A stretch of DNA of 64,000 nt from Gammaproteobacteria bacterium (GTDB lineage: Bacteria > Pseudomonadota > Gammaproteobacteria > GCA-001735895): assembly GCA_050298595.1 (NCBI GenBank), contig JBNKUM010000107.1, positions 1-64,000 on the forward strand, written 5' to 3'. Positions 4,601 to 46,398 of the stretch are shown piece after piece; positions within the stretch are counted from its first letter, which is position 1, and each line of letters begins with the position of its first letter. The position numbers were made by a program, and so were the translations under genes. Below the pieces are notes generated by a model. It was not told the origin of the DNA, did not search any database, and was given only the letters and a program-made list of their open reading frames with translations.

Positions 4601-4881
4601 CGGTGGGGCGCATAGGCGGTGACGAGTTCGTGATTCTACTGATGGACCTGGAAGGCGTTGAGGAATGCAGGATGGTCCTGACTCGGCTGCTCAACACAAT
4701 AGCACAACCGATCCAGCTCGGTGGGCATTCGGTTTCGGTCTCTGCGAGTCTTGGTGTTGCATTGTTTCCGCAAGACGATGCCGATCCAGATTTACTGCTT
4801 CGGCATGCCGATCAGGCGATGTACCAGGCCAAGCGGGGTGGCAAGAGTAGTTATCGCTTGTTTGATCCAGACCAGCCGTAG
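1657..4881 (+). CDS. Multi-PAS diguanylate cyclase (N-terminal TM helix, 7 PAS/PAC, GGDEF)
   Basis: Repeated PAC ends (DITERK), HDALTGLPNR, GDLDGFKPVND, intact GGDEF with RxxD I-site (RVGD); visibly more GC-rich than the core genes. Confidence 0.95.
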   Translation: MLITLLSTSCLILLVLLIIQQRKNRLLQSDRQVFRALAENSPDLIFIYDRQGRRVYVNPVFTRLFGVLVEDIVGKSPADSPVLDSAQNRKLVDSIRHGFETGESSEIDVIFEDQQGLAHNYSMLLIPECDGEGQVNTVLGLNRDITAIREVERTVSNLVTQLPGFVFKFRRSADGFMSYPFASPRVEEFFGLRPEDIVQDATPLHAMTHPEDAPRVLESILESARTMSSSHVEYRLLRPGYPERWVEVTATPEAEADGGVLWYGFFLDITERKRAEQDLKQALESIDGIINAIPDLLFEFDLNGTYLNVWAHNPTLLVAQKEILLGNTVRDVLLPDDAEITMSAIDEADRKGSSFGKVIRIELPQGTSWFELSVSRKPGSSDTDRRFIALSRDITERRRMELLLATRERELRSLMEHLPANIARYTLGARNLYANPMLERTLDTPKEDLLGRTPMEAFPDGRYSEYQQRILATAASGNSDEMEMVIPKGGDEVEYHQVRFVAERDEKDKVVSVLSIGTDISERKQAELALAARERELRTLLESIPDNIARYTPDARRIYINPVLERTYDKPKEYFLGRTPMECFPDGRYCEYQRRVIATAATGSNYEMEMAMPMANGEVEYHFIRFVPERNEKDEVISVLAIGTDITERKRAELALAAREREFRSLAESLPDNIIRYDRKGVTVYVNPVLERTLGESATAMIGATPREHHPDGSYEDYAQLLDVVLASGEAGELEKQHLDQNGGEHLSQIRMVPEFDDDGEVVGVLAIGRDITETRRAEEKLRLAASVFTSTSEGIIVSDTDNRILDVNEAFTRITGYTREEVIGENPSLLSYGRQAPEFYAEMWRTLQQTGHWAGEIWNQRSDGEEYAVWLTISVVNDDQGKLSHYVAVFADITLIKEQERQLQRIAHHDALTGLPNRLLFLDRLKQAVAQARRSGGLLAVCYGDLDGFKPVNDRYGHEAGDNVLVTIGKRMQECVRVGDTVGRIGGDEFVILLMDLEGVEECRMVLTRLLNTIAQPIQLGGHSVSVSASLGVALFPQDDADPDLLLRHADQAMYQAKRGGKSSYRLFDPDQP
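2873..3628 (+). repeat. Tandem intragenic duplication of a PAS-PAC module (378-nt period)
   Basis: cccgcgagcgcgagttgcgta at 2873 and 3251; protein repeats RERELRSLMEHLPANIARY / RERELRTLLESIPDNIARY. Confidence 0.85.
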
Positions 4882-6892: not shown

Positions 6893-9800
6893 TTAACGTT
6901 TACTATTACCCAGGCAGTAAGCGCAATTATCAAAATCGAGTGCATGCGCTTCATCCAGATCATGAAACCCTATTCGTGAGGAAAGCGGAATATCTCGTGC
7001 CAGGCGAACACACGGCTCTATGTGTAACTCACGGCTCTTTACATTCCCGTAATAGGGGAAGTCAAAACTATGTTTCAAATGTTTTGCATCGGCTCCATAG
7101 CCAGCCAACAATGTCACTTCCGGTAGCTGCTCGCCACCCTCTTTCACACAAAGGCATGGCTCGAAACCGAACAACCAGGCATCTTCCTGGCAGGCAAAGC
7201 CAATCCGATGTTTCTCCAATATACGCTTCACTCGCCAACAGTCGGCACGGTGGTAATATTTACTATCAATCGCCGCGAGCCAATGGAAACCCTCATTAGC
7301 GCTACGTTTTTTCGCCAATGGCCAGGGAACGAAATTGACATCGCAATGGACACCATTGCTCCGTCGCTCACCCTCGATTACAACCACATCACCACTACCG
7401 CCACGTTGCAACAACGGCATAGTAAAGGAGAGGGTAAGGTCATCGATTACCCTGGTAGCCGCCTCTTTACCTTCCATCTGAATATGGTCGTCTGGGCTAA
7501 AGTAACCATGGGCAACAATGGTGGCACCAGGAGCTTCACTCTCGGTCGACAAAGACTTTATGTAAGGTGTTACACCGAATTCCATGGCGTTTCCAGCCAG
7601 TCCTGTCGTTGTATCCACCACTGCCACAGATCTTGGGCCGGGTTCGGCGTCGTTCGGTACGGTCCACTGGAACGTGTTTGAACCGACACGGCTTGCTACC
7701 ACTTCCACACCATTGATATACAAGAGGCAGGCATCTGTAAAATTTAGCCCCGTGATTGTCAAAACTTCTCCGGCTTCCACCGCCAACCTGGATAACGCGG
7801 TGATCTTTGCTTTTACCGCAAAATTGACGATGTTACCTGCCTTGTCAAAGTCGTACTTTATTTTAAGCTCACCATTTCCAGCGCTCATTTCAGGAACAGT
7901 AAACATCCGTGTATTTTCATCCACCAGTGTGGAGTCGACATCTAAACCTCTGTAAAATAGTATTCCATGTAAGTTGAAATATCCTTTCAATATGATCTCT
8001 TCACCTGGCAATGCCTGTGCAGGAGATGCACTTGTATCAATATATGGTGCCACTCCGTACGTAGCTGGATTGCTACGTCGACCATCTTTACTTTGCACCA
8101 CAACTTCTTTTTTCCCAACATCAGTATGCACTTCAAAATTTAAGGTCTGTGTATTCACTACCTCTGTGTCGACCTCGCTCCCATTTTGCAACACTTTGTC
8201 ATCATAATTAAAACCCGCGCCAAGTACTTCAACATTTAGTCCATTCACCTGCACCGTCGGTCTAAGTGCGGTGATAATCGAATTAACCGTAAAGTGTTCT
8301 GTATTACTGTAAATATCGTTGTTCCCGCTGTCAGTGCACATAAGCACGACATCATATTCACCGCCCTGAATATCATTAGGGACCTGAACTTCAATGATTC
8401 CGTTATCATGCGACAGTTCGTTAAGATTTGGTGAGGTGTAGGTGTTGCAAAATCTTAAAAAATTACTTACACCCCCATCACCAACATAGACATGCACATC
8501 AACATTCGTTCCAGGTGCAGCTTCTGCTGGTGAAATCGATCGAATGTAAGGTGCGATTACAAAATCGGTGTCCGTACCCATTACCCCTTCAGCCGATTCT
8601 GCACGTAGCTTTACCAGTCCCACATTTGGCGCAGAGTTATTAACACCAGTATGTGGCACCGTAAATGTTACGGTATTGCCGTTCCCGGACATTTCCAGCT
8701 TCTCGTCGAAACCTGAACCACTAATATGCAACGTCCAGCCACCACTAAAGTAGCCGCTTAATGTAACTTCTTTACCTACAATTTGGGATGTCTTGCTGAC
8801 GCTTGAGATATAGGGTGCCGCTTTAAATGTCAGATCAGTACTGTATTTCCCGAATTTATTCAGGAATATTTTTTTAAGGCCGGGGGGGAAATTATATGGA
8901 TAGGTAAATGTGAGCGTTTTCCCATCTGGCTGTGCATTTACCTGACTGACAGTCAAATCAGGGTGTGAACCGTCATAGGCCCTGATAATGACGTCACAAC
9001 CATTGAGATTGTGTCCTGTAAGCGTAATAGTACCTCCAGCAACACCGCCTTCAGGAGAAATGCCCTCCAGCAATGGCGTAGCGATAAGCCCTTCGCGCTC
9101 AGCCACGTCAATAATCCATGGGGCATATCGATCCAGCATCTGAGTGGCATGCTCGCCTATATTCACATCCCATTGATTAAACGCTGCGGCACCATCACAG
9201 GGTTCAAAATTGGTAATGTTGAAATCGCCAGGTGAAATAGCACCGTCAATAGCGCACCCCACCGGCCAGGCTGCAGATTTCTTCATCGCTGTACTGCTAA
9301 AATTGTGCCGCTGAAATACGTTATAACAACTCACACCTTGTAGAGAGCGCAGTACAGGAAAGTAATCTGTTCTCTCCTTCGTTGGTCTTTTTGTGACGCT
9401 TTTCCAGTAATACTCACTGTCCTTACGCCACAAATGTTTTTTTGTTTTCACATGCCATTCACGTATTAGCTTCTTCTCATCCTTGTGCCCCTCATTGACA
9501 CGCGGATCGATACTCACTAACACCACTTTGGATGACTCATTCGTCATCCGACTGGCAAGATGATAGGCAAGCAGTGCACCGCGCCCAAAACCAGCGAACA
9601 AAAGTATTGGCCGATCCACGCCCATCTTGTCGTAAACCAGGAGGATGCGATTTATTACATGCTCGCTTAGCTCCTCTTCGACTCGTTTCTTGCGTTCTTC
9701 AGAATAGAGCCAATTGTTATTTGGATTTAGAACGTCAACGATAATCGCATCGGCTTCCTGTGTACCTAATGAGGTGAAATGATTGTAATCCTTGTAGAGA

Positions 9801-10135
9801 AGTCCAGCTGTACTGATGAGTTCTTTTCGGGCAATTGCATAATCACCTGTCCAAATATTACTACCTGTGTTGGTAATCCGTTTTGCCCCTGTAAGACGTA
9901 GACCAAATAACAAGTCAACATCATCACCCACCATTGCAGGTGATGGCGTTTGCTGATCGGCAATTAACATAAACAGGCAACCTGGCTTGATCTGAGACTC
10001 ACGAATCAGTTGCAGCGTATCCTTTAGGCACCATAGGTTTGCCTTTGCTATTGCCTCACCCAATACCGCATAGGTTGGTCTTTGCCCTCTGCGTTCAGCA
10101 TTTTCAATTTTGACCTTAAAATCATCTTTGCTCAT
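6893..10135 (-). CDS. Large protein: alpha/beta-hydrolase-like N-domain, 7 IPT/TIG repeats, two Ada-like Cys/His metal-binding domains
   Basis: AGGAGG 6 nt before ATG 10135; LFAGFGRGALLA elbow; seven P-x-I-x-S-x-S-P...G...G-x-N/Y-F repeats; YHRADC..FEPCLC and LHIEPC..FDNCAYC. Confidence 0.8.
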   Translation of the reverse strand: MSKDDFKVKIENAERRGQRPTYAVLGEAIAKANLWCLKDTLQLIRESQIKPGCLFMLIADQQTPSPAMVGDDVDLLFGLRLTGAKRITNTGSNIWTGDYAIARKELISTAGLLYKDYNHFTSLGTQEADAIIVDVLNPNNNWLYSEERKKRVEEELSEHVINRILLVYDKMGVDRPILLFAGFGRGALLAYHLASRMTNESSKVVLVSIDPRVNEGHKDEKKLIREWHVKTKKHLWRKDSEYYWKSVTKRPTKERTDYFPVLRSLQGVSCYNVFQRHNFSSTAMKKSAAWPVGCAIDGAISPGDFNITNFEPCDGAAAFNQWDVNIGEHATQMLDRYAPWIIDVAEREGLIATPLLEGISPEGGVAGGTITLTGHNLNGCDVIIRAYDGSHPDLTVSQVNAQPDGKTLTFTYPYNFPPGLKKIFLNKFGKYSTDLTFKAAPYISSVSKTSQIVGKEVTLSGYFSGGWTLHISGSGFDEKLEMSGNGNTVTFTVPHTGVNNSAPNVGLVKLRAESAEGVMGTDTDFVIAPYIRSISPAEAAPGTNVDVHVYVGDGGVSNFLRFCNTYTSPNLNELSHDNGIIEVQVPNDIQGGEYDVVLMCTDSGNNDIYSNTEHFTVNSIITALRPTVQVNGLNVEVLGAGFNYDDKVLQNGSEVDTEVVNTQTLNFEVHTDVGKKEVVVQSKDGRRSNPATYGVAPYIDTSASPAQALPGEEIILKGYFNLHGILFYRGLDVDSTLVDENTRMFTVPEMSAGNGELKIKYDFDKAGNIVNFAVKAKITALSRLAVEAGEVLTITGLNFTDACLLYINGVEVVASRVGSNTFQWTVPNDAEPGPRSVAVVDTTTGLAGNAMEFGVTPYIKSLSTESEAPGATIVAHGYFSPDDHIQMEGKEAATRVIDDLTLSFTMPLLQRGGSGDVVVIEGERRSNGVHCDVNFVPWPLAKKRSANEGFHWLAAIDSKYYHRADCWRVKRILEKHRIGFACQEDAWLFGFEPCLCVKEGGEQLPEVTLLAGYGADAKHLKHSFDFPYYGNVKSRELHIEPCVRLARDIPLSSRIGFHDLDEAHALDFDNCAYCLGNSKR

Positions 10136-10566
10136 GACACACCTCCTGTGTAATATCAGTTTATGTGGTATTGCATGACTGTCTGGCATGCTTTCGCACT
10201 GTCAGATGGGACTTTTGATCTCTTCCTCGTGTATCCGTGAAATGACTGGATTGGAATAGCTATCCCGTAGCCATTCAGCGGCGGAAATTAAGTAATAAAA
10301 ATTGAAAACGATGACACATGCTTAAATCGCCATATCCTTTATCAGGCTGTATAGAGCATAAGGAAAGAGTTATCTAAAAAGATAGTCCCTATGTATAGGA
10401 AGGATAGGTGCAGCACGGCAGAATATCAAGGCAGAAAACCAGAGTCATGGGTCCACTCGCAACGCCAGTCTACCTGGCCGCTACCAACTCAATGCAGGCA
10501 GAGACCGCATATTTTTTATCTACTTCGAATTACTGAAACCAGGTTTAGGTTTTCTGTTTGAAGACG

Positions 10567-35564: not shown

Positions 35565-36356
35565 TTGATGACTACAGAATTATTTATAAGTCGTAGTGGG
35601 CAGGGGCCGGCCCTTGTATTACTGCATGGCTGGGGGATGAATGGGGGAATTTTTAACCCGTTACTGGATTATCTGAATGATGATTTTGAAGTGCTGTGCG
35701 TGGATTTACCTGGGCATGGAAAATCCGCTTTGGCCCATACGGATTTTGATCATCAGGTGGAACAGCTGGCGCGCATATTGCCGGATTCGATATTGCTGGG
35801 CTGGTCAATGGGAGGGCTGTATGCCACAGCGCTTGCACAGTGCTATCCTGAAAAATTCAGCCGTATAGTGCTAGTCGCTTCTAACCCTTGTTTTGTGCAG
35901 CAGGATGATTGGCGTAGTGCCGTGCCTCAACAGGTTTTTGATGAATTCTCCAGCTCGCTGTCAGGTGACTGGAAGGCGACTATCAAGCGCTTTATTGGTT
36001 TGCAATTGCATGGCGCTGAGCAGGCGCGACATTTAATACGTCACGTGACAGCTCTTTTGGTTGAGGGTGGTGCGCCGCAGCCTGAGGCGCTCAGTAATGG
36101 TCTGGAGTTGCTGCTCAATCATGATGCGCGAGACGCTTTGAAGAACCTCGTTCAGCCAGTGATGATGGTGCTGGGGAGGCGTGATACGCTGGTACCTATA
36201 AGCTTGTTACAACAAATACATCGGGTAAATCCATCGATTCGTGTAGAATGCTTCCCCCATTCGGCGCATGTGCCGTTTGTTTCTCATCCACAGCAATTTG
36301 CAGATTTATTACGTGAATTTACTCAATCCTCCACGTCTGGACAAAATAGCGGTTAA
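35565..36356 (+). CDS. bioH: Pimeloyl-ACP methyl ester esterase
   Basis: LLHGWG, DLPGHG, GWSMGG, SAHVPFVSHP; overlaps bioC. Confidence 0.9.
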   Translation: MMTTELFISRSGQGPALVLLHGWGMNGGIFNPLLDYLNDDFEVLCVDLPGHGKSALAHTDFDHQVEQLARILPDSILLGWSMGGLYATALAQCYPEKFSRIVLVASNPCFVQQDDWRSAVPQQVFDEFSSSLSGDWKATIKRFIGLQLHGAEQARHLIRHVTALLVEGGAPQPEALSNGLELLLNHDARDALKNLVQPVMMVLGRRDTLVPISLLQQIHRVNPSIRVECFPHSAHVPFVSHPQQFADLLREFTQSSTSGQNSG

Positions 36357-37119
36357 AAAATCTTTTAACCGAGGCGCTGCCGATTACGATAAGTGTGCGG
36401 TATTGCAGGCTGAAGTGCTCAGGCGCTTACTGGAAAGACTGGAATATATCAAGCTTCAGCCCGAGTGGGTTATCGATCTTGGTTGTGGCACCGGCCAGGC
36501 TATTAAACCGTTGAATAAAAAGTATCGTAGTGCTCGGGTAATTGCGCTGGATATGGCGGATGCTATGCTGCAGCGCGCGCGCAAAAACCATGGCCTGTTC
36601 GATCGTAAATACCTGCTCAATGCAGATATGGAAGCGCTGCCATTCAAGACGCAAAGTGTAGATATGATCTTCTCCAGTCTGGCCTTGCAGTGGAGTAATG
36701 ATTTGCATGCTACCTTTAAGGAGTTTAAGCGTGTTGGTCGATCTGGCGGGGTGGTTCTATTTGCCACGCTTGGCGCTAATACTCTGAGGGAATTGCGTGA
36801 GAGCTGGAAGCTGGTGGATCCCATGCCACGTGTGCATCTGTTTATGGATATGCATGATGTAGGCGATGCGATGTTGGCAGCAGGGTTATCACAACCTGTG
36901 GTAGATATGGAAGAAATCACGCTTGAGTACGATAAATTCCCGGATTTGATGCGTGATTTAAAAGGTATCGGTGCGACCAATGCCGATCGTAACCGCAGCC
37001 GGGGTTTGATGACACCAGCCAAGTTAAGGCGTTTACAGCAGGCATACGAGCAGGTGGCTTTTAAGAGAGATCGATATCAGGCCACTTATGAAGTTGTGTA
37101 TGGTCATGCCTGGTTTTAA
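36313..37119 (+). CDS. bioC: Malonyl-ACP O-methyltransferase
   Basis: IDLGCGTG, SSLALQW, FMDMHDVGD, ATYEVVYGHAW; likely GTG start at 36313. Confidence 0.93.
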   Translation: MNLLNPPRLDKIAVKKSFNRGAADYDKCAVLQAEVLRRLLERLEYIKLQPEWVIDLGCGTGQAIKPLNKKYRSARVIALDMADAMLQRARKNHGLFDRKYLLNADMEALPFKTQSVDMIFSSLALQWSNDLHATFKEFKRVGRSGGVVLFATLGANTLRELRESWKLVDPMPRVHLFMDMHDVGDAMLAAGLSQPVVDMEEITLEYDKFPDLMRDLKGIGATNADRNRSRGLMTPAKLRRLQQAYEQVAFKRDRYQATYEVVYGHAWF

Positions 37120-37529: not shown

Positions 37530-38024
37530 ATGATTCTTGAAAACGCAGATGTCGATGAAAGTCGCTGCGAATTTTTAATAAGACCCAACAGATCATTGAC
37601 GGCAAAAGGGATGGTTTTTTTTGTGGTGTTGGTTGGATTGGGCGTTTTTCTGGTAGCCATAAGATTTGTGCTACTGGGAGCATGGGTGATATTACCGTTT
37701 GCGGTACTCGAAGTTTGTTTCCTGGCAGCTGGATTCTGGTTGTATGAAAGGGCAAGCCGCTATCGTGAAACAGTTAAACTCTCCAGAAATAGCTTTTTGA
37801 TTACACAGGATGGTGTGCATGTGCGTCGAAGTTGGCGTTTCAATCCACACTGGGTTCAGGTGAATCTTGAGCTGGATTCCAATGGCTGGTATCCAAGCAA
37901 GCTACTAATAAGATCGCATGGTGAACAGGTTGAGATAGGTGCCTGTTTAACCAATCAGGAGAGAGAAGAACTATCTATAGCAATAAAACAATCAATGCCG
38001 CGTGTTTTATATCAAGCGGTATGA
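37530..38024 (+). CDS. DUF2244-type integral membrane protein
   Basis: RPNRSL, GAWVILPFAVLE, VEIGACLTNQER; commonly found next to cox genes. Confidence 0.85.
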   Translation: MILENADVDESRCEFLIRPNRSLTAKGMVFFVVLVGLGVFLVAIRFVLLGAWVILPFAVLEVCFLAAGFWLYERASRYRETVKLSRNSFLITQDGVHVRRSWRFNPHWVQVNLELDSNGWYPSKLLIRSHGEQVEIGACLTNQEREELSIAIKQSMPRVLYQAV

Positions 38025-38064
38025 ATAAAGAACAAGTTTAACAATAACCGGGGGGAGTATCTAG

Positions 38065-39189
38065 ATGACTCAGCTAGTAAAAGTCTTCAAAAGAAGATGG
38101 TTGCTGATCGTATCCATGTTTTTTTCACTACCAGCAAGTGCTGCTCGAGAGTATAACCTGCCAGAGCCAGCGTCAACTATGGCGCGCGAAATCTTCAATT
38201 TACATACCATGACGGCTACCATAGCCACCATCATCATGGTTATAGTAACCGGCATTATCGTTTATGCGCTGATCAAATTTCGTAAATCTGCCGGTTATGA
38301 GGCAGATCAGGAATTTAATCATACCTGGTTTGGGCGCTGGTCATGGGTGCTGGTCCCCGCCATAGTACTGGGGATCGATTTTAGTGTTGCAGGCCCTGCT
38401 TCAAAAACACTTGCTAACGTTGAGTCTTATGATGAGGCTGCCGTGACAGTCAAGGTCACGGGTTCACAATGGAAATGGACCTACGAGTATATGGATGACG
38501 GTATCAAGATTGTCAGTAATCTAAAAAGAGAGCTTACCGTAGATGATGAGCATTATTTAAGGGATGTAGACAATCGGCTGGTACTCCCGAGTAATCAAAG
38601 AATCCGCTTTTTACATACAGCAACCGATGTATTACATGCCTGGTGGGTTCCTGCTCTGGCCTATAAAAAGGATTCAATCCCCGGGTATATCAATGAAACC
38701 TGGGCATTCATTGATCAAGAGGGTGTATTCCGCGGGCAGTGTGCAGAAAATTGCGGTACAGGTCATGCCTTTATGCCTATTGTTGTGGAGGTGGTCAGTC
38801 CCGATAAATTTGATGAGTGGAAGAATGGACAGAAAGTAGCAATGGCCGCTGCTGCAGCTGAGGCTTCTGCAGATAAAACCTGGTCGAAAGATGAACTGTA
38901 TCAGCGTGGAGAGAAGCTCTACAACACTACCTGTTCTGCCTGCCATATGCCTACAGGTCTGGGCATACCCGGTGTATTCCCTGCATTAAAAGGTAGTCCC
39001 GTTGCTACCGGGGATGTTGCTAAACATTTGAATACTGTATTGAAAGGTGTTGCAGGAACCGCAATGGCGGCCTGGGGCGCGCAATTGAATGATCTTGAGC
39101 TGGCATCGATTATTACCTATGAGCGAAATGCCTGGGGTAATGAAACTGGTGATGCCGTACAACCCGCTGACGTTAAAGCAGCTCGATAA
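38065..39189 (+). CDS. coxB: Cytochrome c oxidase subunit II with fused cytochrome c
   Basis: QWKWTYEY, DVLHAWW, CuA motif CAENCGTGHAFM, C-terminal CSACH. Confidence 0.97.
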   Translation: MTQLVKVFKRRWLLIVSMFFSLPASAAREYNLPEPASTMAREIFNLHTMTATIATIIMVIVTGIIVYALIKFRKSAGYEADQEFNHTWFGRWSWVLVPAIVLGIDFSVAGPASKTLANVESYDEAAVTVKVTGSQWKWTYEYMDDGIKIVSNLKRELTVDDEHYLRDVDNRLVLPSNQRIRFLHTATDVLHAWWVPALAYKKDSIPGYINETWAFIDQEGVFRGQCAENCGTGHAFMPIVVEVVSPDKFDEWKNGQKVAMAAAAAEASADKTWSKDELYQRGEKLYNTTCSACHMPTGLGIPGVFPALKGSPVATGDVAKHLNTVLKGVAGTAMAAWGAQLNDLELASIITYERNAWGNETGDAVQPADVKAAR

Positions 39190-39209
39190 TATAGATAACT
39201 GGGAGATAA

Positions 39210-40814
39210 ATGATGAGTGAAGTTACTACACACGATGATCATCATGATCATAGGCCTTCGGGTATAGGTCGCTGGTTGTTCAGTACCAACCATAAAGATA
39301 TTGGTACGATGTACCTGATCTTCGCGCTGGTTATGCTGTTTCTGGGTGGCGCTAGTGCAATGATATTGCGTATGGAATTGTTTATACCTGGCATCCAGAT
39401 CGTTCAGCCAGATGTGTATAACAATCTGCTGACCAATCATGCATTGATAATGGTATTCGGTATGGTTATGCCTGCAGGTGCCGGTATGGCGAACTGGATG
39501 ATTCCGATGATGATCGGAGCGCCCGATATGGCGTTACCACGTATGAATAACCTGAGCTTCTGGTTGTTACCAATGGCCGCGACCATGTTGGTACTGTCAT
39601 TTGTGGTTTCCTTTTTTCCTGGAGCCGGTACACCGATTAATACGGGTTGGACCCTGTATCCGCCTTTATCTGTGCAAACAGGCATAGGCATGGACTTCCT
39701 GATTTTTACCGTGCACCTTCTGGGTATTTCATCCATCATGGCGGCAATAAATATTGTTACTACCATCGTTAATATGCGTGCACCGGGCATGACCTGGTTC
39801 AAGTTGCCGTTGTTTGTATGGTCCTGGTTGTTTACCGGTTTATTGCTGATCATGATCATGCCTGTACTGGCCGGTGCAGTAACCATGCTATTGTTTGACC
39901 GTCATTTCGGTACTTCATTCTTTGATGCGGCAGGCGGTGGTGATCCAGTACTATTCCAGCATATGTTCTGGTTCTTTGGGCATCCTGAGGTTTATGTACT
40001 GTTGTTACCTTCAATCGGGGTACTGGGTCTGATTATACCTACCTTCTCTCGTAAGCCCCTGTTTGCTTATAAGCCACTGGTCTGGTTTATGGCAATCCTG
40101 ACTGCGCTGGGCATGGTGGTCTGGGCACATCACCAGTACACCGTGGGTATGTCACTGACAGCGACCACCTATTTCATGATTGGCACGATTTTGATATCTA
40201 TACCCGTAGGCATGATGCTGATGAGTTTTATCTTTACCATGTGGCGCGGGGCAATGACTTTCGAAACCCCAATGCTGTTTGGTATTGCGATTATCCTGAT
40301 GTTCTCATTTGCGGGAGTAACTGGCGTAATGCTGGCAGTGGTGCCAGCTGATCTTCAATATCATGACACCTACTTTGTCGTGGCACATTTTCACTATGCC
40401 TTGATACCAGGCTCGGTATTTGGGCTGTATGCGGCGGTTTTTTACTGGTTACCGAAGTGGACAGGTCATATGTATGACGAGAAACTGGGAAAGATATTCT
40501 TCTGGTGGACCACGTTGTCGTTTAACCTGACCTTCTTCCCACAGCATTTTGCAGGTCTGGCTGGTATGCCTCGACGTATTGTTGATTACAGTCCTCAGTT
40601 TGCTGATTTGAATTTCATATCCAGTGTTGGCGGTATGCTATTTGGGCTGTCTCACCTGTTGTTCCTGTATATCATTATCAAAACAGTTAAAGGTGGGGAA
40701 AAGGCGCCGGATAAGCCATGGGAAGGTTCACAGATTGGTACATCCGGTCTGGAGTGGACGTTATCGTCCCCACCACCTTTCCACAGTTTTAACACGCCGC
40801 CAACGGTAAAATAG
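39210..40814 (+). CDS. coxA: Cytochrome c oxidase subunit I, A1 type (K-channel residues substituted)
   Basis: NHKDIG, APDMALPRMNN, GHPEVY, WAHH, HDTY, AHFHY, GMPRR. Confidence 0.97.
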   Translation: MMSEVTTHDDHHDHRPSGIGRWLFSTNHKDIGTMYLIFALVMLFLGGASAMILRMELFIPGIQIVQPDVYNNLLTNHALIMVFGMVMPAGAGMANWMIPMMIGAPDMALPRMNNLSFWLLPMAATMLVLSFVVSFFPGAGTPINTGWTLYPPLSVQTGIGMDFLIFTVHLLGISSIMAAINIVTTIVNMRAPGMTWFKLPLFVWSWLFTGLLLIMIMPVLAGAVTMLLFDRHFGTSFFDAAGGGDPVLFQHMFWFFGHPEVYVLLLPSIGVLGLIIPTFSRKPLFAYKPLVWFMAILTALGMVVWAHHQYTVGMSLTATTYFMIGTILISIPVGMMLMSFIFTMWRGAMTFETPMLFGIAIILMFSFAGVTGVMLAVVPADLQYHDTYFVVAHFHYALIPGSVFGLYAAVFYWLPKWTGHMYDEKLGKIFFWWTTLSFNLTFFPQHFAGLAGMPRRIVDYSPQFADLNFISSVGGMLFGLSHLLFLYIIIKTVKGGEKAPDKPWEGSQIGTSGLEWTLSSPPPFHSFNTPPTVK

Positions 40815-40872
40815 TAATCATTGTGCGAGCAGTCTGTAATCACAGGCTGCTCACTTGATTTCACATGATGTT

Positions 40873-41013
40873 ATGGCAAAAAAAGATATGACAATCGAAG
40901 AAAAACGTTTACGACGCAATAACCTGATCGTTGCTGCTATTTTAACGGCAATTGCATTGACCGGCATTCTGGTACCTTTGCTTTATTACACAGGAATAAC
41001 AGTACCTCAATGA
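40873..41013 (+). CDS. 46-aa single-TM small protein in the cox operon (absent from ORF track)
   Basis: MAKKDMTIEEKRLRRNNLIVAAILTAIALTGILVPLLYYTGITVPQ*; stop overlaps the ctaG start (ATGA). Confidence 0.7.
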   Translation: MAKKDMTIEEKRLRRNNLIVAAILTAIALTGILVPLLYYTGITVPQ

Positions 41014-41552
41014 ATACTGGGCAGAAACGCAAGGGTAAAAAAACATCCTGGTTACTGGGTGCTATTGGTGTAGGTATGTTTGGCTTCGGCTTTGCACTGG
41101 TACCCCTTTATAATCTGTTATGTTCCGTTTCTGGTGTCAATGGCATTGCCACCGCCGCAACCAAATCGGAAATGGTAATGATGCAGGTGGATAATTCGAG
41201 ATTGGTTACAGTTGAGTTTGATTCGACGATCAATGAGAACCTGCCGTGGAAAATAGAAAGGCCATCAAAGAAGTTGAAAGTACATCCGGGCGAGATTCAT
41301 AACATTAGCTACCGGGCGACTAACCTGTCAAATAAAACCATTAAGGTACAGGCGATACCGGGGATTACACCGTGGCAGGCCACTGAATTTTTTAACAAGA
41401 TACAGTGCTTTTGTTTTGACACACAAACCCTGGGGCCTGGGGAAAGTCAGGATATGAACCTGCAATTTATTGTAGATAGAGATTTACCTGAACAATATAA
41501 AACAATCACCCTGTCTTATACGTTCATGAATACTGATCGCTCTAAAATTTAA
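41010..41552 (+). CDS. ctaG: Cytochrome c oxidase assembly protein CtaG/Cox11
   Basis: FALVPLYNLLC, KIQCFCF, ITLSYTF. Confidence 0.96.
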   Translation: MNTGQKRKGKKTSWLLGAIGVGMFGFGFALVPLYNLLCSVSGVNGIATAATKSEMVMMQVDNSRLVTVEFDSTINENLPWKIERPSKKLKVHPGEIHNISYRATNLSNKTIKVQAIPGITPWQATEFFNKIQCFCFDTQTLGPGESQDMNLQFIVDRDLPEQYKTITLSYTFMNTDRSKI

Positions 41553-41582
41553 TAAGAAAACTACTCACACCAGAGGAAAGAT

Positions 41583-42452
41583 ATGACAACTAACGACAGT
41601 TATTTTATTCCGGAGCCAAGTCGCTGGCCGATCATTTCAGCGACTGGCGTATTCGTTTTATTGTTTGGCTTTATCCTGTTTATCAATGATATTGGAGCGG
41701 GCTCGACGATTATTGTGGGTGGTCTGTTGATGGTTGCCTATATGTTCTTTGGCTGGTTTGGTGCCGTCATTGATGAAAACCTGAAAGGCAATTATGGCCC
41801 GCAGGTGAGCACCTCGTTTCGGCATGGCATGTTCTGGTTTATTACTTCGGAAGTTTTTTTCTTCCTGACTTTTTTTGGTTGTTTATATTATCTACGTAAC
41901 GTCGCTGTTCCCTACCTGGGTGGGGAAGGGCAACTGGGTAAATCCAATTTATTGTGGGATGGTTTTCAGGCGACATGGCCGCTAATAAATTTGCCTGATG
42001 CAACCAACTACACCCCCGCCAAAGAGGCAATGGGCGCAGGTGGAATACCACTGTGGAATACCATCATCCTGTTATCTTCTGGCGCCACCCTGACCTGGGC
42101 GCACTGGGGTCTAAAGAAAGATAGTAAGAATCAGTTGGTATTAGGACTCATGCTGACTGTAGCACTGGGCCTGTTGTTCTTCAGTTTGCAGGCCTACGAG
42201 TATGCGCATGCTTACACAGAAATGAATTTAAGACTGACATCGGGTATTTATGGCTCGATGTTTTACATGCTGACGGGCTTTCATGGCATGCACGTAACGA
42301 TCGGCACGATCATGTTGATTGTGATTACAATCCGTTCTATGAAGAATCATTTTACCGAAGAAAATCACTTTGCGTTTGAGGCTGTTGCCTGGTACTGGCA
42401 TTTTGTTGATGTGGTATGGATCGGCCTGTATTTCTTTGTGTACTGGTTATAA
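41583..42452 (+). CDS. coxC: Cytochrome c oxidase subunit III
   Basis: FITSEVFFF, LTGFHGMHV, WYWHFVDVVW. Confidence 0.97.
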   Translation: MTTNDSYFIPEPSRWPIISATGVFVLLFGFILFINDIGAGSTIIVGGLLMVAYMFFGWFGAVIDENLKGNYGPQVSTSFRHGMFWFITSEVFFFLTFFGCLYYLRNVAVPYLGGEGQLGKSNLLWDGFQATWPLINLPDATNYTPAKEAMGAGGIPLWNTIILLSSGATLTWAHWGLKKDSKNQLVLGLMLTVALGLLFFSLQAYEYAHAYTEMNLRLTSGIYGSMFYMLTGFHGMHVTIGTIMLIVITIRSMKNHFTEENHFAFEAVAWYWHFVDVVWIGLYFFVYWL

Positions 42453-42522
42453 GGTCGAAAAAATGATGAATTTGCGTCTTGCTTATGTTCAGGCGCTTTT
42501 TCTATATCATAGAACTGTGTGA

Positions 42523-42723
42523 TTAGAAGTTATTAGGCTGCAGGTTCCCGCTGTAATAACCAATGAGCAGAAGGCAGATCAGGCAGATAGACAGGGCAAC
42601 CCGGATAGTGAGGGACGTGACAATTCTATTGGATTTGCCATTATCCCTGGCAAGGAAAATGACGCCGCTAAATAAGCTGATCAGAATCAGAATAAGGTTG
42701 ATGATGATTAGTATCTTAAACAT
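42523..42723 (-). CDS. Twin-TM small protein (DUF2909/HIG1-like)
   Basis: SLFSGVIFLARD..SLTIRVALS; usual position between coxC and SURF1. Confidence 0.85.
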   Translation of the reverse strand: MFKILIIINLILILISLFSGVIFLARDNGKSNRIVTSLTIRVALSICLICLLLIGYYSGNLQPNNF

Positions 42724-42795
42724 GGGAACCTGTGCGGGTATTTATAAGCCGCTCATTTTAACATACTGTAATAAAACAAGGGCCTGTTAAAGCGA

Positions 42796-43530
42796 GTGAG
42801 TATGAAATACCAGTTTAGATTTAACCCGTTGATGATCTTTCTGACATTGGTGTTTTTTTCGGTTTTTTCAGCACTATCGGTGTGGCAGGTGAACCGGGTG
42901 TATGAAAAACAGCATGTGCAGGATTTAATAGCTCATGCTAATGCGGGTAATCCGTTACATATTCAGGCGCATGAGAATGAGCAGCAATTGCTGCAACATC
43001 GTCATTATAAAGCGACAGCTAAAGGCCGCTTTTTGCATGAACAATGCCTCTTTGTGGAAAATGTAATTTTTAAGGGTGAGCCAGGATTGTATGTGTATTG
43101 TCCTTTCAGGATTGAAAGTGATAGCAAAGTATTACTGGTGAATATGGGCTGGATAAAAAAGTTATATAACCGGCTGCAGTTACCACCTTATCAGGTGAGC
43201 AGTGATGTGGTTTCTATTGAGGGTGTAATAGCAGATCCACGTTCTAAGCCAGTGGTGACCACGGGGTTAGATAAACCGAATATTGAGCTGGATAACTTGT
43301 GGGCTTATTTTGATTTCGACAGCCTGCGCAAACAAACCGGATTTGATTTCTATCCGATAGAATTTCGGTTAACGAGCGATATCGATACGATGTTGCAAAG
43401 AGACTGGCCACAGTACGAAGCAAAGATCGGCATGCATATAGGTTATGCGATTCACTGGGCCGCTTTTGCATTAGTGACTCTGGGATTATTTTTGAAATTT
43501 AATATTAAGAAAACTGAATTAAATGACTGA
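42796..43530 (+). CDS. SURF1-family protein
   Basis: LSVWQVNR, LLVNMGWI, MHIGYAIHWAAFA. Confidence 0.9.
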   Translation: MSMKYQFRFNPLMIFLTLVFFSVFSALSVWQVNRVYEKQHVQDLIAHANAGNPLHIQAHENEQQLLQHRHYKATAKGRFLHEQCLFVENVIFKGEPGLYVYCPFRIESDSKVLLVNMGWIKKLYNRLQLPPYQVSSDVVSIEGVIADPRSKPVVTTGLDKPNIELDNLWAYFDFDSLRKQTGFDFYPIEFRLTSDIDTMLQRDWPQYEAKIGMHIGYAIHWAAFALVTLGLFLKFNIKKTELND

Positions 43531-44131
43531 ACAGGTAAAAAAGACAAGTTACATGCCGCTGTGGATATTAATCGCGTTATGCGGTTTTCCCTATATTGGC
43601 GGTACTTTGTATTACCAGTATCAAGATCGCCTGCCACAGGCTGGTACTACAAATTATGGGGAGTTGATATCTCCAGTCAAAGAACTCAAAAACATCAATT
43701 TGACCATGTTGGACGGTAGTGAAAAACCAGTCACTGATTATCGTAAGAAATGGTTGATGGTCTATGTGCTGGATGTAGATTGTGGCGAGGATTGTCAGAA
43801 GAACCTTTATTTTATGCGCCAGATTAGAAGAGCGATGGCTGAAGATCGTTACCGGATTAATCGCTTACTCGTGCTGGATAAGCAGGAGTTATTCACAACT
43901 GACTTGCAGGCGTTTTTGAAGGATTACGAGGGAATGGATGTGGCGACGGTTAACAATGAATCGAAAACAGATTTTTATTCGATCTTACAGGATGCTTCCG
44001 GTAAGACCTTTAGAAAAATAATGCTTATCGATCCTATGGGTAATTTCATGATGGAATATGATTCTCAGCCTGACCCTGAATTAGTGCTGAAAGATGTGAA
44101 AAGATTATTAACTATCTCCAGAATTGGATGA
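43523..44131 (+). CDS. Cox-cluster thioredoxin-fold (SCO-like) membrane protein
   Basis: TNYGELISP, CGEDCQKNLYFMRQ, LIDPMGNFMM. Confidence 0.8.
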   Translation: MTEQVKKTSYMPLWILIALCGFPYIGGTLYYQYQDRLPQAGTTNYGELISPVKELKNINLTMLDGSEKPVTDYRKKWLMVYVLDVDCGEDCQKNLYFMRQIRRAMAEDRYRINRLLVLDKQELFTTDLQAFLKDYEGMDVATVNNESKTDFYSILQDASGKTFRKIMLIDPMGNFMMEYDSQPDPELVLKDVKRLLTISRIG

Positions 44132-44149
44132 ATAGCTTAGAGGCAGATT

Positions 44150-45070
44150 ATGATATTGGACAAGGTTAAAGAAAGTACTCAGTATTTCCCACATATACGG
44201 GATTATTATCGTTTATGTAAGCCAAAAGTGGTTTACCTGATCCTGTTTACTGCCGCTGCCGGCATGCTGTTATCCAGCTCAGCTATGGTACCCATAGACA
44301 CGCTATTCTTTGGTTTGCTGGGTATTGGTCTCGGGGCAGCTTCTGGTGCCGCTATTAATCACTGGGTGGATCAGCGTATCGATGTCATTATGGCACGTAC
44401 GCGTAATCGCCCCTTGCCGCAGGGTAATGTCAGCTCAAGATCGGCATTGATTTTTGCCGTCAGTCTGGGAGTGCTGTCCATGGTGGTGCTGATTGCGTTT
44501 GTTAATGTCATGACTGCTGTGCTGACTTTCATTGCACTCAACGGTTATGCCGTGGTGTATACCATGTTTCTCAAGCACTCTACGCCGCATAATATTGTAC
44601 TGGGCGGCGCGGCCGGTGCTGCTCCTCCTGTATTGGGCTGGACTGCGGTTACTAATGAATTAACCGTAGATGCGCTGTTGCTATTTCTGATTATCTTTAT
44701 CTGGACCCCACCACACTTCTGGGCCCTGGCCATCAAGCGTCGTGATGAATATCGTGCAGCTGGTGTACCGATGTTACCCGTGACTCATGGCATTGCTTTC
44801 ACCAAGTTACATATCGTTCTATATACATTGATGCTGCTGGTAGTTACTTTGCTACCTTTCGTCATTCATATGAGTGGTCATCTGTATCTGGCGGGGGCGG
44901 TAGGACTCGGTCTGGGATTTATCTACTATGCAATCAAGCTGTATCGTTGTGAATCAGATGAATATGCAATGAAGACATTTGGCTATTCTATCTTTTATCT
45001 GAGTGCGTTATTTGCGATATTAATAACCGATCACTATCTAAGAGAATTTATTCGCGCCTATTTTTTATAG
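44150..45070 (+). CDS. cyoE: Protoheme IX farnesyltransferase (heme O synthase)
   Basis: LCKPKVV, IDVIMARTRNRPLP, NIVLGG, WTPPHFWAL. Confidence 0.97.
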   Translation: MILDKVKESTQYFPHIRDYYRLCKPKVVYLILFTAAAGMLLSSSAMVPIDTLFFGLLGIGLGAASGAAINHWVDQRIDVIMARTRNRPLPQGNVSSRSALIFAVSLGVLSMVVLIAFVNVMTAVLTFIALNGYAVVYTMFLKHSTPHNIVLGGAAGAAPPVLGWTAVTNELTVDALLLFLIIFIWTPPHFWALAIKRRDEYRAAGVPMLPVTHGIAFTKLHIVLYTLMLLVVTLLPFVIHMSGHLYLAGAVGLGLGFIYYAIKLYRCESDEYAMKTFGYSIFYLSALFAILITDHYLREFIRAYFL

Positions 45071-46398
45071 ATAGCACGCAATACGATCACCAGGAATACT
45101 ACGCCGCCGATAATCGCTATCAGGCCACCCAGCCCCATCAGGCCCATGCCGGCCTTTTGGGCCAGGGAATCCAGCCCCTGTGCGGCACCGGCAGTTTTAC
45201 GTTGAACCCCATACCCACCTGACCATGCCAGACCAATGATATGCATCATTTGGCCAGTGGCATAAATGATCGGCTGAGCATTCACCCATTTGCCGACAGG
45301 TGCCTTATAACCAAAGACAGGCAGTAGCAGATAGGACATGCCCATAAAGGCCAGGGTCACCCCTACAATCGATCCGTGGTAATGCGCGGGGATTACAACG
45401 TTTACTCCTTTTATCATAAAACCCAGTACGCCTCCACTGGCGAACAGGACGACAGAGCTGACGAAAGCAATTCTCAGGGGCTTTTGTTCGGGGCTCAGCG
45501 GCAGCCTGTTAAATATCTTAAATGCGATCAGCAGTCCAAGAGGCAGGCTGGTCAAACCACCGAAACGCATCAGTTCAGTAAAATTAATGCGGTGCTCTGG
45601 CGATAAGACAGGAAAGCTGAGATAGATGACAGGGGTTAATAGTACGGGTAAAAAACATAGCAAAAATAAGGCTGTATAGTGCCCATTTTTCAATGGGTAG
45701 CTATTTCCAGCTGCACTGCTTAACCATAGCCATGAAACCAGCAATAAAATGGTATGCGAAAATTGTAGAGTGTGCCCACTGCCCCAGAAAAGATATTCGT
45801 AATAGCTGTGCTCATTCCCCGTCTTTGGCAGTGCCTGGTAGGAATAAAGCTGGGCTAACAGGGTAATAATCAGCGTGACAACGCTGAGAAAAATAGCAAA
45901 TTTCATGACGCCCTGAGTATTTGTCAGGTCAGGGAGTTTATTAAATACTAAAGACCGTATAGATACGACGGCAATACCACAACCAACCATGACCAGACCT
46001 GAAAGGAATAAGCTGTCATTCAAAACCGGAATGTAATTATTGATGATGGGGTGAGCCTGTCCTGAAAAAGGTGTTATGACAATCATCAGGGTGCCAGCCA
46101 GTGCCAGCAATAGCGCGCTCAAGTCCAGAAATCGAGCCGGTCTTTGATTGCTTAAGCTCCAGAAGATTGCGGTAAAGGAAATAAACCAGATTAAAACCGA
46201 TAGGTCGACATGCACCACAAGAGCGGTATGGAAGAAATCAATCCAGGGGATGAAATCGGATATTGCAGGGGTTCGGGAAAGTACCAGTAATAGAGAAAAT
46301 ATGCCTGATGCGAGTAATGAAAAGATGCCGAGGAAAAACCAGCCTTTGGAAATATTTATTTGTCCAGGGCTGAACTGGTCGAGATAGAAAGAGTTCAA
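45058..46398 (-). CDS. Heme-copper oxidase subunit I-like membrane protein with incomplete binuclear site
   Basis: About 12 TM; LVVHVD, FWGSGHTLQF, PAHYHG, GVQRK; no HH pair, no cross-link Tyr. Confidence 0.75.
   Translation of the reverse strand: MNSFYLDQFSPGQINISKGWFFLGIFSLLASGIFSLLLVLSRTPAISDFIPWIDFFHTALVVHVDLSVLIWFISFTAIFWSLSNQRPARFLDLSALLLALAGTLMIVITPFSGQAHPIINNYIPVLNDSLFLSGLVMVGCGIAVVSIRSLVFNKLPDLTNTQGVMKFAIFLSVVTLIITLLAQLYSYQALPKTGNEHSYYEYLFWGSGHTLQFSHTILLLVSWLWLSSAAGNSYPLKNGHYTALFLLCFLPVLLTPVIYLSFPVLSPEHRINFTELMRFGGLTSLPLGLLIAFKIFNRLPLSPEQKPLRIAFVSSVVLFASGGVLGFMIKGVNVVIPAHYHGSIVGVTLAFMGMSYLLLPVFGYKAPVGKWVNAQPIIYATGQMMHIIGLAWSGGYGVQRKTAGAAQGLDSLAQKAGMGLMGLGGLIAIIGGVVFLVIVLRAIYKK

Follow-up and report, generated by a model that had tools for sequence, protein, structure and literature searches.

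The analysed stretch of DNA, hereafter the window, comprises the first 64,000 nucleotides of contig JBNKUM010000107.1 from the genome of a gammaproteobacterium (GCA_050298595.1), and carries at positions 37530-46398 a complete cytochrome oxidase cluster in which all genes are open frames (Table 1). The coxB product, subunit II, scored above the cut-off of TIGR02866 (176.5 bits) and is of the caa3 form, consisting of two transmembrane helices, a CuA domain with its ligands (H, C-x-E-x-C, H, M) and a single C-terminal haem c domain with a CxxCH motif. The coxA product, subunit I, carries the GHPEVY motif (CoxA residues 257-262) that supports the A1 assignment made in the first-pass annotation of this DNA. 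Subunit III and the assembly genes, which that annotation had described as intact, are likewise open and matched by Pfam (coxC, ctaG, SURF1 and cyoE). Haem A synthase CtaA is encoded elsewhere in the same genome (G000:C8, 376 bits), together with two ccoNO (cbb3) sets and a cytochrome bd. No second A-type oxidase was found in the source genome; haem A would thus be made for this enzyme alone. The subject of this study is the K pathway of the oxidase, a route regarded as indispensable in A-type oxidases since one Lys-to-Met substitution there nearly stops the model enzymes.

Residue positions were established with phmmer against PDB chains. The best bacterial structural relatives were the aa3 oxidases of Paracoccus denitrificans (Pd; PDB 1AR1, E 8.7e-157) and Rhodobacter sphaeroides (Rs; 1M56/2GSM, E 5.4e-156), which align colinearly with the window enzyme and match it at every catalytic residue, although they have no fused cytochrome c, unlike the window CoxB. 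CoxA residues 192-503 aligned without a gap to residues 210-521 of 1ar1_A, and in this range residue n of the window enzyme corresponds to n+18 in Pd and n+26 in Rs numbering; the latter is used below. CoxB was aligned to 1ar1_B and 1m56_B, which placed its GRWSW on their E(I/V)(A/I)W. The substitutions that had been read by eye in the first-pass annotation held under this alignment. K362, T359, S299 and the subunit II entry residue E101 (E78 in Pd) are absent and are replaced by M336, V333, G273 and, in CoxB, R91, and the HHM motif has become HHQ (Q309, at position M335). A further change on the same face of helix VIII, W366F (F340), had been overlooked, and L274 stands at the position of H300. 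No Lys was found within any membrane helix of the window CoxA. The positions at which C-family enzymes carry their "KC" residues hold no polar residue either (A286, L290, F293 and G301 in the window sequence; Pd G304, M308, A311 and G319).

The remaining functional residues are present, as had been claimed. The D pathway is complete (Y33, N121, D132, N139, N207, G283 and E286, following the residue list in Table 2 of PMC12901375), and the alignment also confirmed Y288, the six His ligands (H102, H284, H333, H334, H419 and H421), H411/D412, R481/R482 and the CuA site.

To place these substitutions in a wider context, the nearest 120 database clusters, with 66-93% identity to the window CoxA, were aligned. 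Position 362 was Met in 96, Ile in 20, Leu in three and Val in one, with Lys in none; position 359 was Val in 107, Ile in 12 and Ala in one, with Thr in none; and position 366 was Phe in 103, Tyr in 14 and Leu in three, with Trp in none. Position 299 behaved differently (G49/A41/S29/T1). The S299G change noted in the first-pass annotation is therefore real in the window enzyme but is not a property of its relatives as a whole, Gly, Ser and Ala being found in 13, 13 and 3 of the 29 K-less loci described below. All 120 clusters kept D132, N139, N207, E286, Y288, H419, H421, R481 and R482, at least 117 kept N121, Y33, G283, H411 and D412 as well, and the six His ligands were kept in 118-120, the exceptions being gaps in fragments.

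We collected 110 loci from the genomes of relatives and from species genomes (a few genomes may be counted twice, as they were found by both routes) and, after dropping five cut or split genes, compared 105 full-length CoxA sequences. Twenty-nine of these lacked both K362 and T359, and 76 had both; all 76 canonical enzymes also kept S299, S/N365 and W366. A quick IQ-TREE analysis, in which the trait columns (a handful of 529) were retained and 11 outgroup rows were used, placed the 29 K-less sequences in a single clade with a Shimodaira-Hasegawa-like approximate likelihood ratio (SH-aLRT) of 100 and a stem of 0.48 changes per site. The clade lies beside or inside the canonical gammaproteobacterial enzymes, for whose monophyly the support was only 25%. 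Outgroups were drawn from a 50%-identity representative library, whose matches (34-62% identity, many of odd length) make it unfit to delimit the clade. The helix VIII motif could be located in nine outgroup rows; seven of them keep the Lys, which indicates that the K-less state is derived.

The same division was found in subunit II. Position 101 was Glu in 76/76 canonical CoxB sequences and in 0/26 informative K-less rows, where it was Arg (11), Asn (5), Thr (4), His (3) or Gln (3) within a clade-conserved WFGxWSW, followed after the second transmembrane helix by a small insertion, LG(I/V)D. A single CxxCH was present in 28/28 K-less CoxB genes. The proposal that the changes are coordinated across two genes is borne out by these data, since the coxA and coxB substitutions go together in the clade, and the alignment and phylogeny that had been suggested as a check confirmed the positions and defined one clade.

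Named carriers include Sedimenticola thiotaurini, S. hydrogenitrophicus, Thioalkalivibrio sulfidiphilus, Inmirania thermothiophila, Aestuariirhabdus, Motiliproteus, Ca. Thiodiazotropha, Thiohalophilus, Thiohalobacter and Thiothrix, and are mostly sulfur oxidisers of oxic-anoxic interfaces. The class was surveyed through 400 evenly sampled genomes, each at least 90% complete (four flagged as unpublished are included in the tallies; none of these is K-less). An A-type match at E 1e-60 or better was found in 296 of the genomes, and in 13, the window's genome included, the match was at least 71% identical. Among 20 survey genes that were fetched, all 12 with at least 71% identity were K-less and all eight with 63-65% identity were canonical. 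The K-less type is thus present in about 3% of the sampled class genomes.

The closest well-known relatives of the clade are the canonical gammaproteobacterial A1 caa3 oxidases (Pseudomonas, Shewanella, Vibrio, Marinobacter and Methylococcus; coxB-coxA-ctaG-coxC), whose CoxA is 55-65% identical. They share the gene set DUF2244, coxBA, ctaG, coxC, SURF1, PA0111-like gene and cyoE, and in most of them, as in the clade, subunit II carries a single fused haem c. Their D pathway, E286, Y288 and all ligands match those of the clade, and in the window's genus they occupy the same chromosomal site. They differ in keeping the Lys, Thr and Trp of CoxA and the Glu of CoxB, none of which the clade has. 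Published descriptions of the Shewanella and Pseudomonas A-type oxidases concern K-bearing enzymes.

The genes of the cluster are under purifying constraint. By the Nei-Gojobori method, the ratio of nonsynonymous to synonymous substitution rates (dN/dS) of coxA came to 0.016 for the pair formed with the nearest genome, at a dS of 0.74. Five pairs of greater distance, with saturated dS, gave 0.013-0.037, and the values for coxB, coxC and ctaG were 0.02-0.10. For canonical coxA genes of the same genus, three pairs gave 0.009-0.031 and a fourth gave no estimate. The earlier inference of selection rather than decay is well supported by the large monophyletic clade, the low coxA dN/dS (about 0.013-0.04) and the invariant catalytic and D-pathway residues.

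Within the window's genus, seven of the 14 genomes (the source genome included) carry the K-less type, five the canonical type and two no match, and none carries both. The cluster lies between bioC and rpoH in all six genomes whose flanks were read, three of each type. The internal gene order differs, as canonical clusters open with their assembly genes and K-less ones close with them, and a DUF2244 gene precedes coxB in many loci of both types. When the flanking proteins PlsY, BioH, BioC and RpoH were compared (about 1000 residues), K-less genome G007 was 80% identical to canonical genome G011 and 69-70% identical to K-less genomes G004 and G000, the latter being the source genome. The oxidase type therefore does not follow its flanks, and the two cluster types behave as exchangeable cassettes at one chromosomal site. 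Such exchange argues for the same cellular niche, though not for kinetic identity.

A column-by-column comparison of the 29 K-less with the 76 canonical genes revealed 21 CoxA positions that are fixed differently, of which three (359, 362 and 366) lie on one face of helix VIII. The other fixed changes include M335Q, beside the CuB ligand H334, as well as Y437F, H456F and Q508H. The last three were present in 29/29 K-less genes, against Tyr in 76/76, His in 76/76 and Gln in 75/76 canonical ones, and among the 120 nearest clusters Y437 was found in none and H456 in one. In R. sphaeroides, Y437 is described as hydrogen-bonded to H456 (bovine H413) at the N-side water channel of the proposed H pathway (PMC12901375). 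Since a new invariant His-508 may represent a relocation, we do not claim that this route has been erased. The H456A variant of R. sphaeroides reportedly has no phenotype. In coxC there was a single fixed difference from the canonical genes, M92F.

Site entropy gave a consistent picture. S299, T359, K362, S365, W366 and the subunit II E101 show no variation across the canonical set, although it is the more diverse one, whereas in the clade former K-pathway sites vary, with 1.38 bits at position 299 (88th percentile) and 2.27 bits at subunit II position 101 (87th percentile). The changes outside the K face are, by contrast, invariant in the clade. As the former K sites are variable and have not been refixed, an abandoned path fits better than a rebuilt one. 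Gln-335 is invariant in the clade (29/29), and HHQ was considered as a marker of K loss; this was ruled out by three of the 76 K-bearing canonical genes (L045, L050 and L052, all from Methylococcaceae and including Methylococcus capsulatus), which carry the same motif. The Gln must therefore have arisen more than once and is not tied to the loss of the Lys.

Natural loss of the K-pathway Lys in A-family oxidases, together with replacement of the subunit II Glu, has already been catalogued by Degli Esposti et al. (bioRxiv 2020; Front Microbiol 2021), and on this point the novelty implied by the first-pass annotation does not stand. Their "modified" oxidases come from acidophilic iron oxidisers, Thioclava and several other phyla, the examples being the rus-operon aa3 of Acidithiobacillus, Acidiferrobacter and Acidihalobacter, and the enzymes of Thioclava, Alicyclobacillus and Thermaerobacter. 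As those articles describe them, Lys-354 (Pd numbering) is replaced by Ile, Val, Met, Leu or Phe and Glu-78 is replaced, with no compensation of the C-family type and with the D pathway kept; the window enzyme, with Met and Arg at these two positions and its KC positions devoid of polar residues, belongs to this category. The published lineages are, however, A2 by the evocell classification, are deep-branching, mostly carry one or two additional helices at the N-terminus, and retain Thr-351. The window enzyme is A1, has Val at position 351, groups with gammaproteobacterial A1 enzymes and has no extra N-terminal helix, residue 5 of its CoxA aligning with residue 6 of the P. denitrificans chain. 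Table S1 of the 2021 article scores the K channel as present in the proteobacterial A1 subtypes (a, a-II, (a)b and a-III), and a proteobacterial A1 K-less clade does not appear in its supplementary tables 1 and 3, although the figure and tree supplements might mention one. The claim of novelty thus holds for the clade itself as far as those tables go. The enzymes of P. denitrificans and R. sphaeroides depend on K354/K362 (PMC12901375), while in the clade Met at this position is natural and conserved. With regard to activity in the "modified" group, the rus-operon aa3 of A. ferrooxidans is said to have been purified as an active oxidase.

Taken together, these data leave us highly confident that the window enzyme belongs to an oxidase clade that is real, is under selection and lacks the canonical K pathway. 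As to its mechanism, we on balance favour a working caa3-type A1 oxidase of a monophyletic gammaproteobacterial clade whose two subunits have both given up the K pathway. On helix VIII it has V359, M362 and F366, and the entry residue Glu-101 is replaced inside the Trp-rich WFGxWSW; O2 would still be reduced to water, and the proton or protons that canonically pass through the K pathway during reduction of haem a3-CuB would come through the D pathway (D132 to E286), which would then carry all eight. Both the activity as an O2 reductase and the D routing are what we infer from conserved residues. In canonical enzymes at least one of the eight protons is taken up through the K pathway and the D pathway could carry seven (PMC12901375), so that the simplest reading is a shift of one step to the intact D pathway. 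Supply of all protons through a single input channel has a precedent in the B-family ba3 of Thermus thermophilus, a member of a different family in which, according to the same source, the K-analogue survives and the D pathway is absent, the reverse of the state proposed here.

Evidence of use comes from a genus to which one locus, titled Ca. Thiodiazotropha, belongs. Very high expression of "aa3" oxidase transcripts in Ca. Thiodiazotropha endoloripes is reported by Petersen et al. (2016, PMC6872982). Of the 45 genomes searched from that genus, 38 gave a match to the window CoxA. Identity was 71-77% for every best match, a few of which were short fragments, and the 55-65% range typical of canonical enzymes was empty across all 45. 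All 30 loci fetched from it read HHQ...PVGxM and are K-less. The released constraint at the K sites, the exchange at one site and the high expression in a genus-mate favour a normal, D-fed O2 reductase over a change of substrate. A stronger version, a natural D-only A1 oxidase that would be fully active, proton-pumping and dominant in some symbionts, with the K pathway erased and the Y437-H456 pair turned into Phe-Phe, is put forward only tentatively.

Several observations weigh against D-only supply. Engineered K319M/K362M substitutions block reduction of haem a3 in canonical enzymes (PMC12901375), so that such supply would need compensating changes; a compensating residue was sought among membrane Lys residues, on helices VI-IX and at the KC positions, and none was identified. 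The fixed changes Q335, F437, F456 and H508 could mark a different route or a different coupling. One surveyed genome (G273) carries both types, which may therefore differ in role rather than be equivalent. Eleven of the 120 clusters have a Lys at position 363, one residue past the lost one (GLMKFNF), and four have Asn there; some of these members may keep a partial K-like function, and the Lys may be a partial re-invention. The Lys-363 members are P0036, P0090-P0092, P0101, P0103, P0107, P0110, P0112, P0116 and P0118, along with loci L094, L095 and L169, of which L094 and L095 still have Val-359 and a non-Glu subunit II entry. The K-less state of the expressed T. endoloripes enzyme is deduced from its genus, and our literature searches gave no paper on the clade and no assay of any member.

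An alternative that we consider rather unlikely, though not negligible, is a cryptic replacement path in or near the old K region, formed by a water chain lined by G/A/S299, S294, T352, S356 and S/N365 and entered past a polar residue at subunit II position 101. It would resemble the Lys-free K-analogue of B-family oxidases, in which T312 and S309 replace the Lys and Thr (Table 2 of PMC12901375). Position 299 is always small in the 120 clusters (G, A, S or T), position 365 is Asn or Ser in 117 of them, subunit II position 101 is polar or charged in 26/26 rows, S294 is found in 26/29 loci, and the Lys-363 variants also fit such a path. However, S294 and S/N365 occur in canonical enzymes as well, positions 359 (V/I/A), 362 (M/I/L/V) and 366 (F/Y/L) are hydrophobic, and the sites are variable, with no new residue fixed at them. 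A differential scan found no newly fixed polar residue on helices VI-IX beyond the P. denitrificans states, Q335 excepted: the only new polar states, Y336 and S341, already occur in P. denitrificans, and Q335, a helix VII residue, is placed past the CuB histidines and, from the direction of the helix, nearer the outer side.

A changed job for the enzyme appears improbable. Under this explanation it would scavenge O2 slowly or without pumping, act like a peroxidase, or as an oxidase be tuned to tolerate or turn over nitric oxide (NO) or sulfide in sulfidic micro-oxic habitats, and proton supply in the reductive phase would be unimportant or different. The habitats of the named carriers agree with it, as do the invariant Gln beside CuB ligand H334 and the genome that retains both types; K362M enzymes, moreover, retain peroxide-driven activity. 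The active site is nevertheless that of an O2 reductase, with the cross-link Tyr, E286, three CuB His and CuA, and HHQ is shared with the K-bearing Methylococcaceae enzymes. The K-less cluster also replaces the canonical one at the same locus, where it encodes the genome's only haem-A enzyme, and the very high Thiodiazotropha expression reported fits a main respiratory oxidase. Haem-copper NO reductases, as described in PMC11214002, have lost the Tyr cofactor and have an altered active site, while the clade has the Tyr-288 motif, three CuB His, CuA and the D pathway. That the gene is a decaying or non-functional relic we regard as extremely improbable. The engineered K362M phenotype would suggest loss of function, and the window CoxA scored 643.4 bits against the NCBIfam equivalog TIGR02891, just below its cut-off of 670.75. 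Against this stand the open genes, a coxA dN/dS of 0.016-0.04, the catalytic residues kept in 120/120 relatives, the spread of the clade over the class and the retention of the assembly genes and CtaA.

The same Lys-to-Met change that disables model enzymes, accompanied by loss of the remaining pathway in two subunits, is thus a conserved natural state in an enzyme that is only moderately diverged. The clade offers a natural test of the need for a K channel, and through it one can ask directly by what compensating changes the D pathway, or some other route, might support the reductive phase. What is new here is an independent, well-delimited and widespread A1 example with a two-subunit signature and cassette-like exchange with the canonical form. 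Its carriers include culturable non-acidophiles (Sedimenticola thiotaurini, Thioalkalivibrio sulfidiphilus, Inmirania thermothiophila and Aestuariirhabdus) and, judging by genus, a K-less oxidase is among the most expressed genes of lucinid clam symbionts. If the enzyme is indeed a fully active, pumping D-only oxidase, then at about 60% identity to its canonical counterparts it would need neither the K pathway nor the Y437-H456 link, which one school places in the H pathway, for turnover or pumping, and sister species with either type at one locus would be a ready comparative system for the long-running dispute on proton routing. In current genome surveys such genes are classed with the ordinary "low-affinity aa3" oxidases. 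A difference in kinetics and coupling is possible and would bear on how respiration is modelled where oxic and anoxic zones meet in sulfidic habitats.

Table 1. Genes of the oxidase cluster and residues discussed in the text (window coordinates; residue equivalences in R. sphaeroides numbering).
Feature	Position	Strand	Evidence or remark
DUF2244 membrane protein, first gene of the cluster	37530..38024	+	Pfam PF10003, E 3.3e-36
coxB, subunit II, 374 aa	38065..39189	+	Pfam COX2, COX2_TM, Cytochrome_CBB3
CoxB R91 (= E101), codon CGC	38335-38337	+	in GRWSW
CoxB CuA motif CAENCGTGHAFM	38740-38775	+	CuA domain; preceded by HAWW
CoxB CSACH	38932-38946	+	C-terminal mono-haem cytochrome c domain
coxA, subunit I, 534 aa, A1-type (GHPEVY)	39210..40814	+	Pfam COX1, 482 bits (cut-off 34.8)
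CoxA G273 (S299G), codon GGT	40026-40028	+	K pathway
CoxA Q309 (= M335)	40134-40136	+	HHM to HHQ
CoxA V333 (T359V), codon GTA	40206-40208	+	K pathway, helix VIII
CoxA M336 (K362M), codon ATG	40215-40217	+	K pathway, helix VIII
CoxA F340 (W366F)	40227-40229	+	same helix VIII face
CoxA F411 (Y437F)	40440-40442	+	fixed clade change
CoxA F430 (H456F)	40497-40499	+	fixed clade change
CoxA H482 (Q508H)	40653-40655	+	fixed clade change, helix XII
ctaG/cox11, CuB insertion factor	41010..41552	+	Pfam PF04442, E 5.3e-47
coxC, subunit III	41583..42452	+	Pfam COX3, E 2.8e-58
SURF1 assembly factor	42796..43530	+	Pfam PF02104, E 1.7e-28
PA0111-family thioredoxin-like protein	43523..44131	+	Sco-like place in cluster; NCBIfam NF058629, E 5.4e-15, below cut-off; weak Pfam AhpC-TSA match
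cyoE/ctaB, haem O synthase	44150..45070	+	Pfam UbiA, E 1.2e-68
Divergent COX1-like membrane protein, 446 aa	45058..46398	-	convergent with cyoE; Pfam COX1, only 41.4 bits

The last gene of the cluster encodes a COX1-like protein, for which no NCBIfam and no PDB match was found. It probably has 12 helices and keeps an FWGSGH that BLASTP paired with the FWFFGH of CoxA; its membership in the oxidase system is uncertain. Relatives of this gene were found beside or near K-less cox clusters (L039, L042, L043, L086, L088 and L094; G041-G043), and in the window's own genus it occurs in six of seven K-less genomes and in none of five canonical ones. A strict tie to K-less clusters was ruled out by the sister genus, in which five of seven genomes carry the gene, four of them with a canonical oxidase and one with only a distant A-type match (41%). 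In genome G002, the COX1-like gene adjoining the K-less cox cluster is reduced to two short fragments, one with an in-frame TGA (G002:C120:16990-17357), and an intact copy, 48% identical, lies on a different contig.

The 5' side of the cluster is occupied by housekeeping genes (rpoD, dnaG, gltBD, pilQ/M, aroB, mrcA, hemE, tsaD, plsY and bioHC), and rpoH lies on its 3' side. When read from their first start codons, the bioH and bioC frames (35565-37119) overlap by 89 bases (36268-36356), and the true start of bioC is probably further downstream. Farther from the cluster, the window encodes on the forward strand (1657-4881) a 1074-amino acid protein with multiple PAS domains and a GGDEF domain, in the most GC-rich stretch of the window (GC content 0.57 at 2001-4000). 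Near it, on the reverse strand (6893-10189), is a gene for a protein of 1098 amino acids whose sole match was an IPT/TIG domain.

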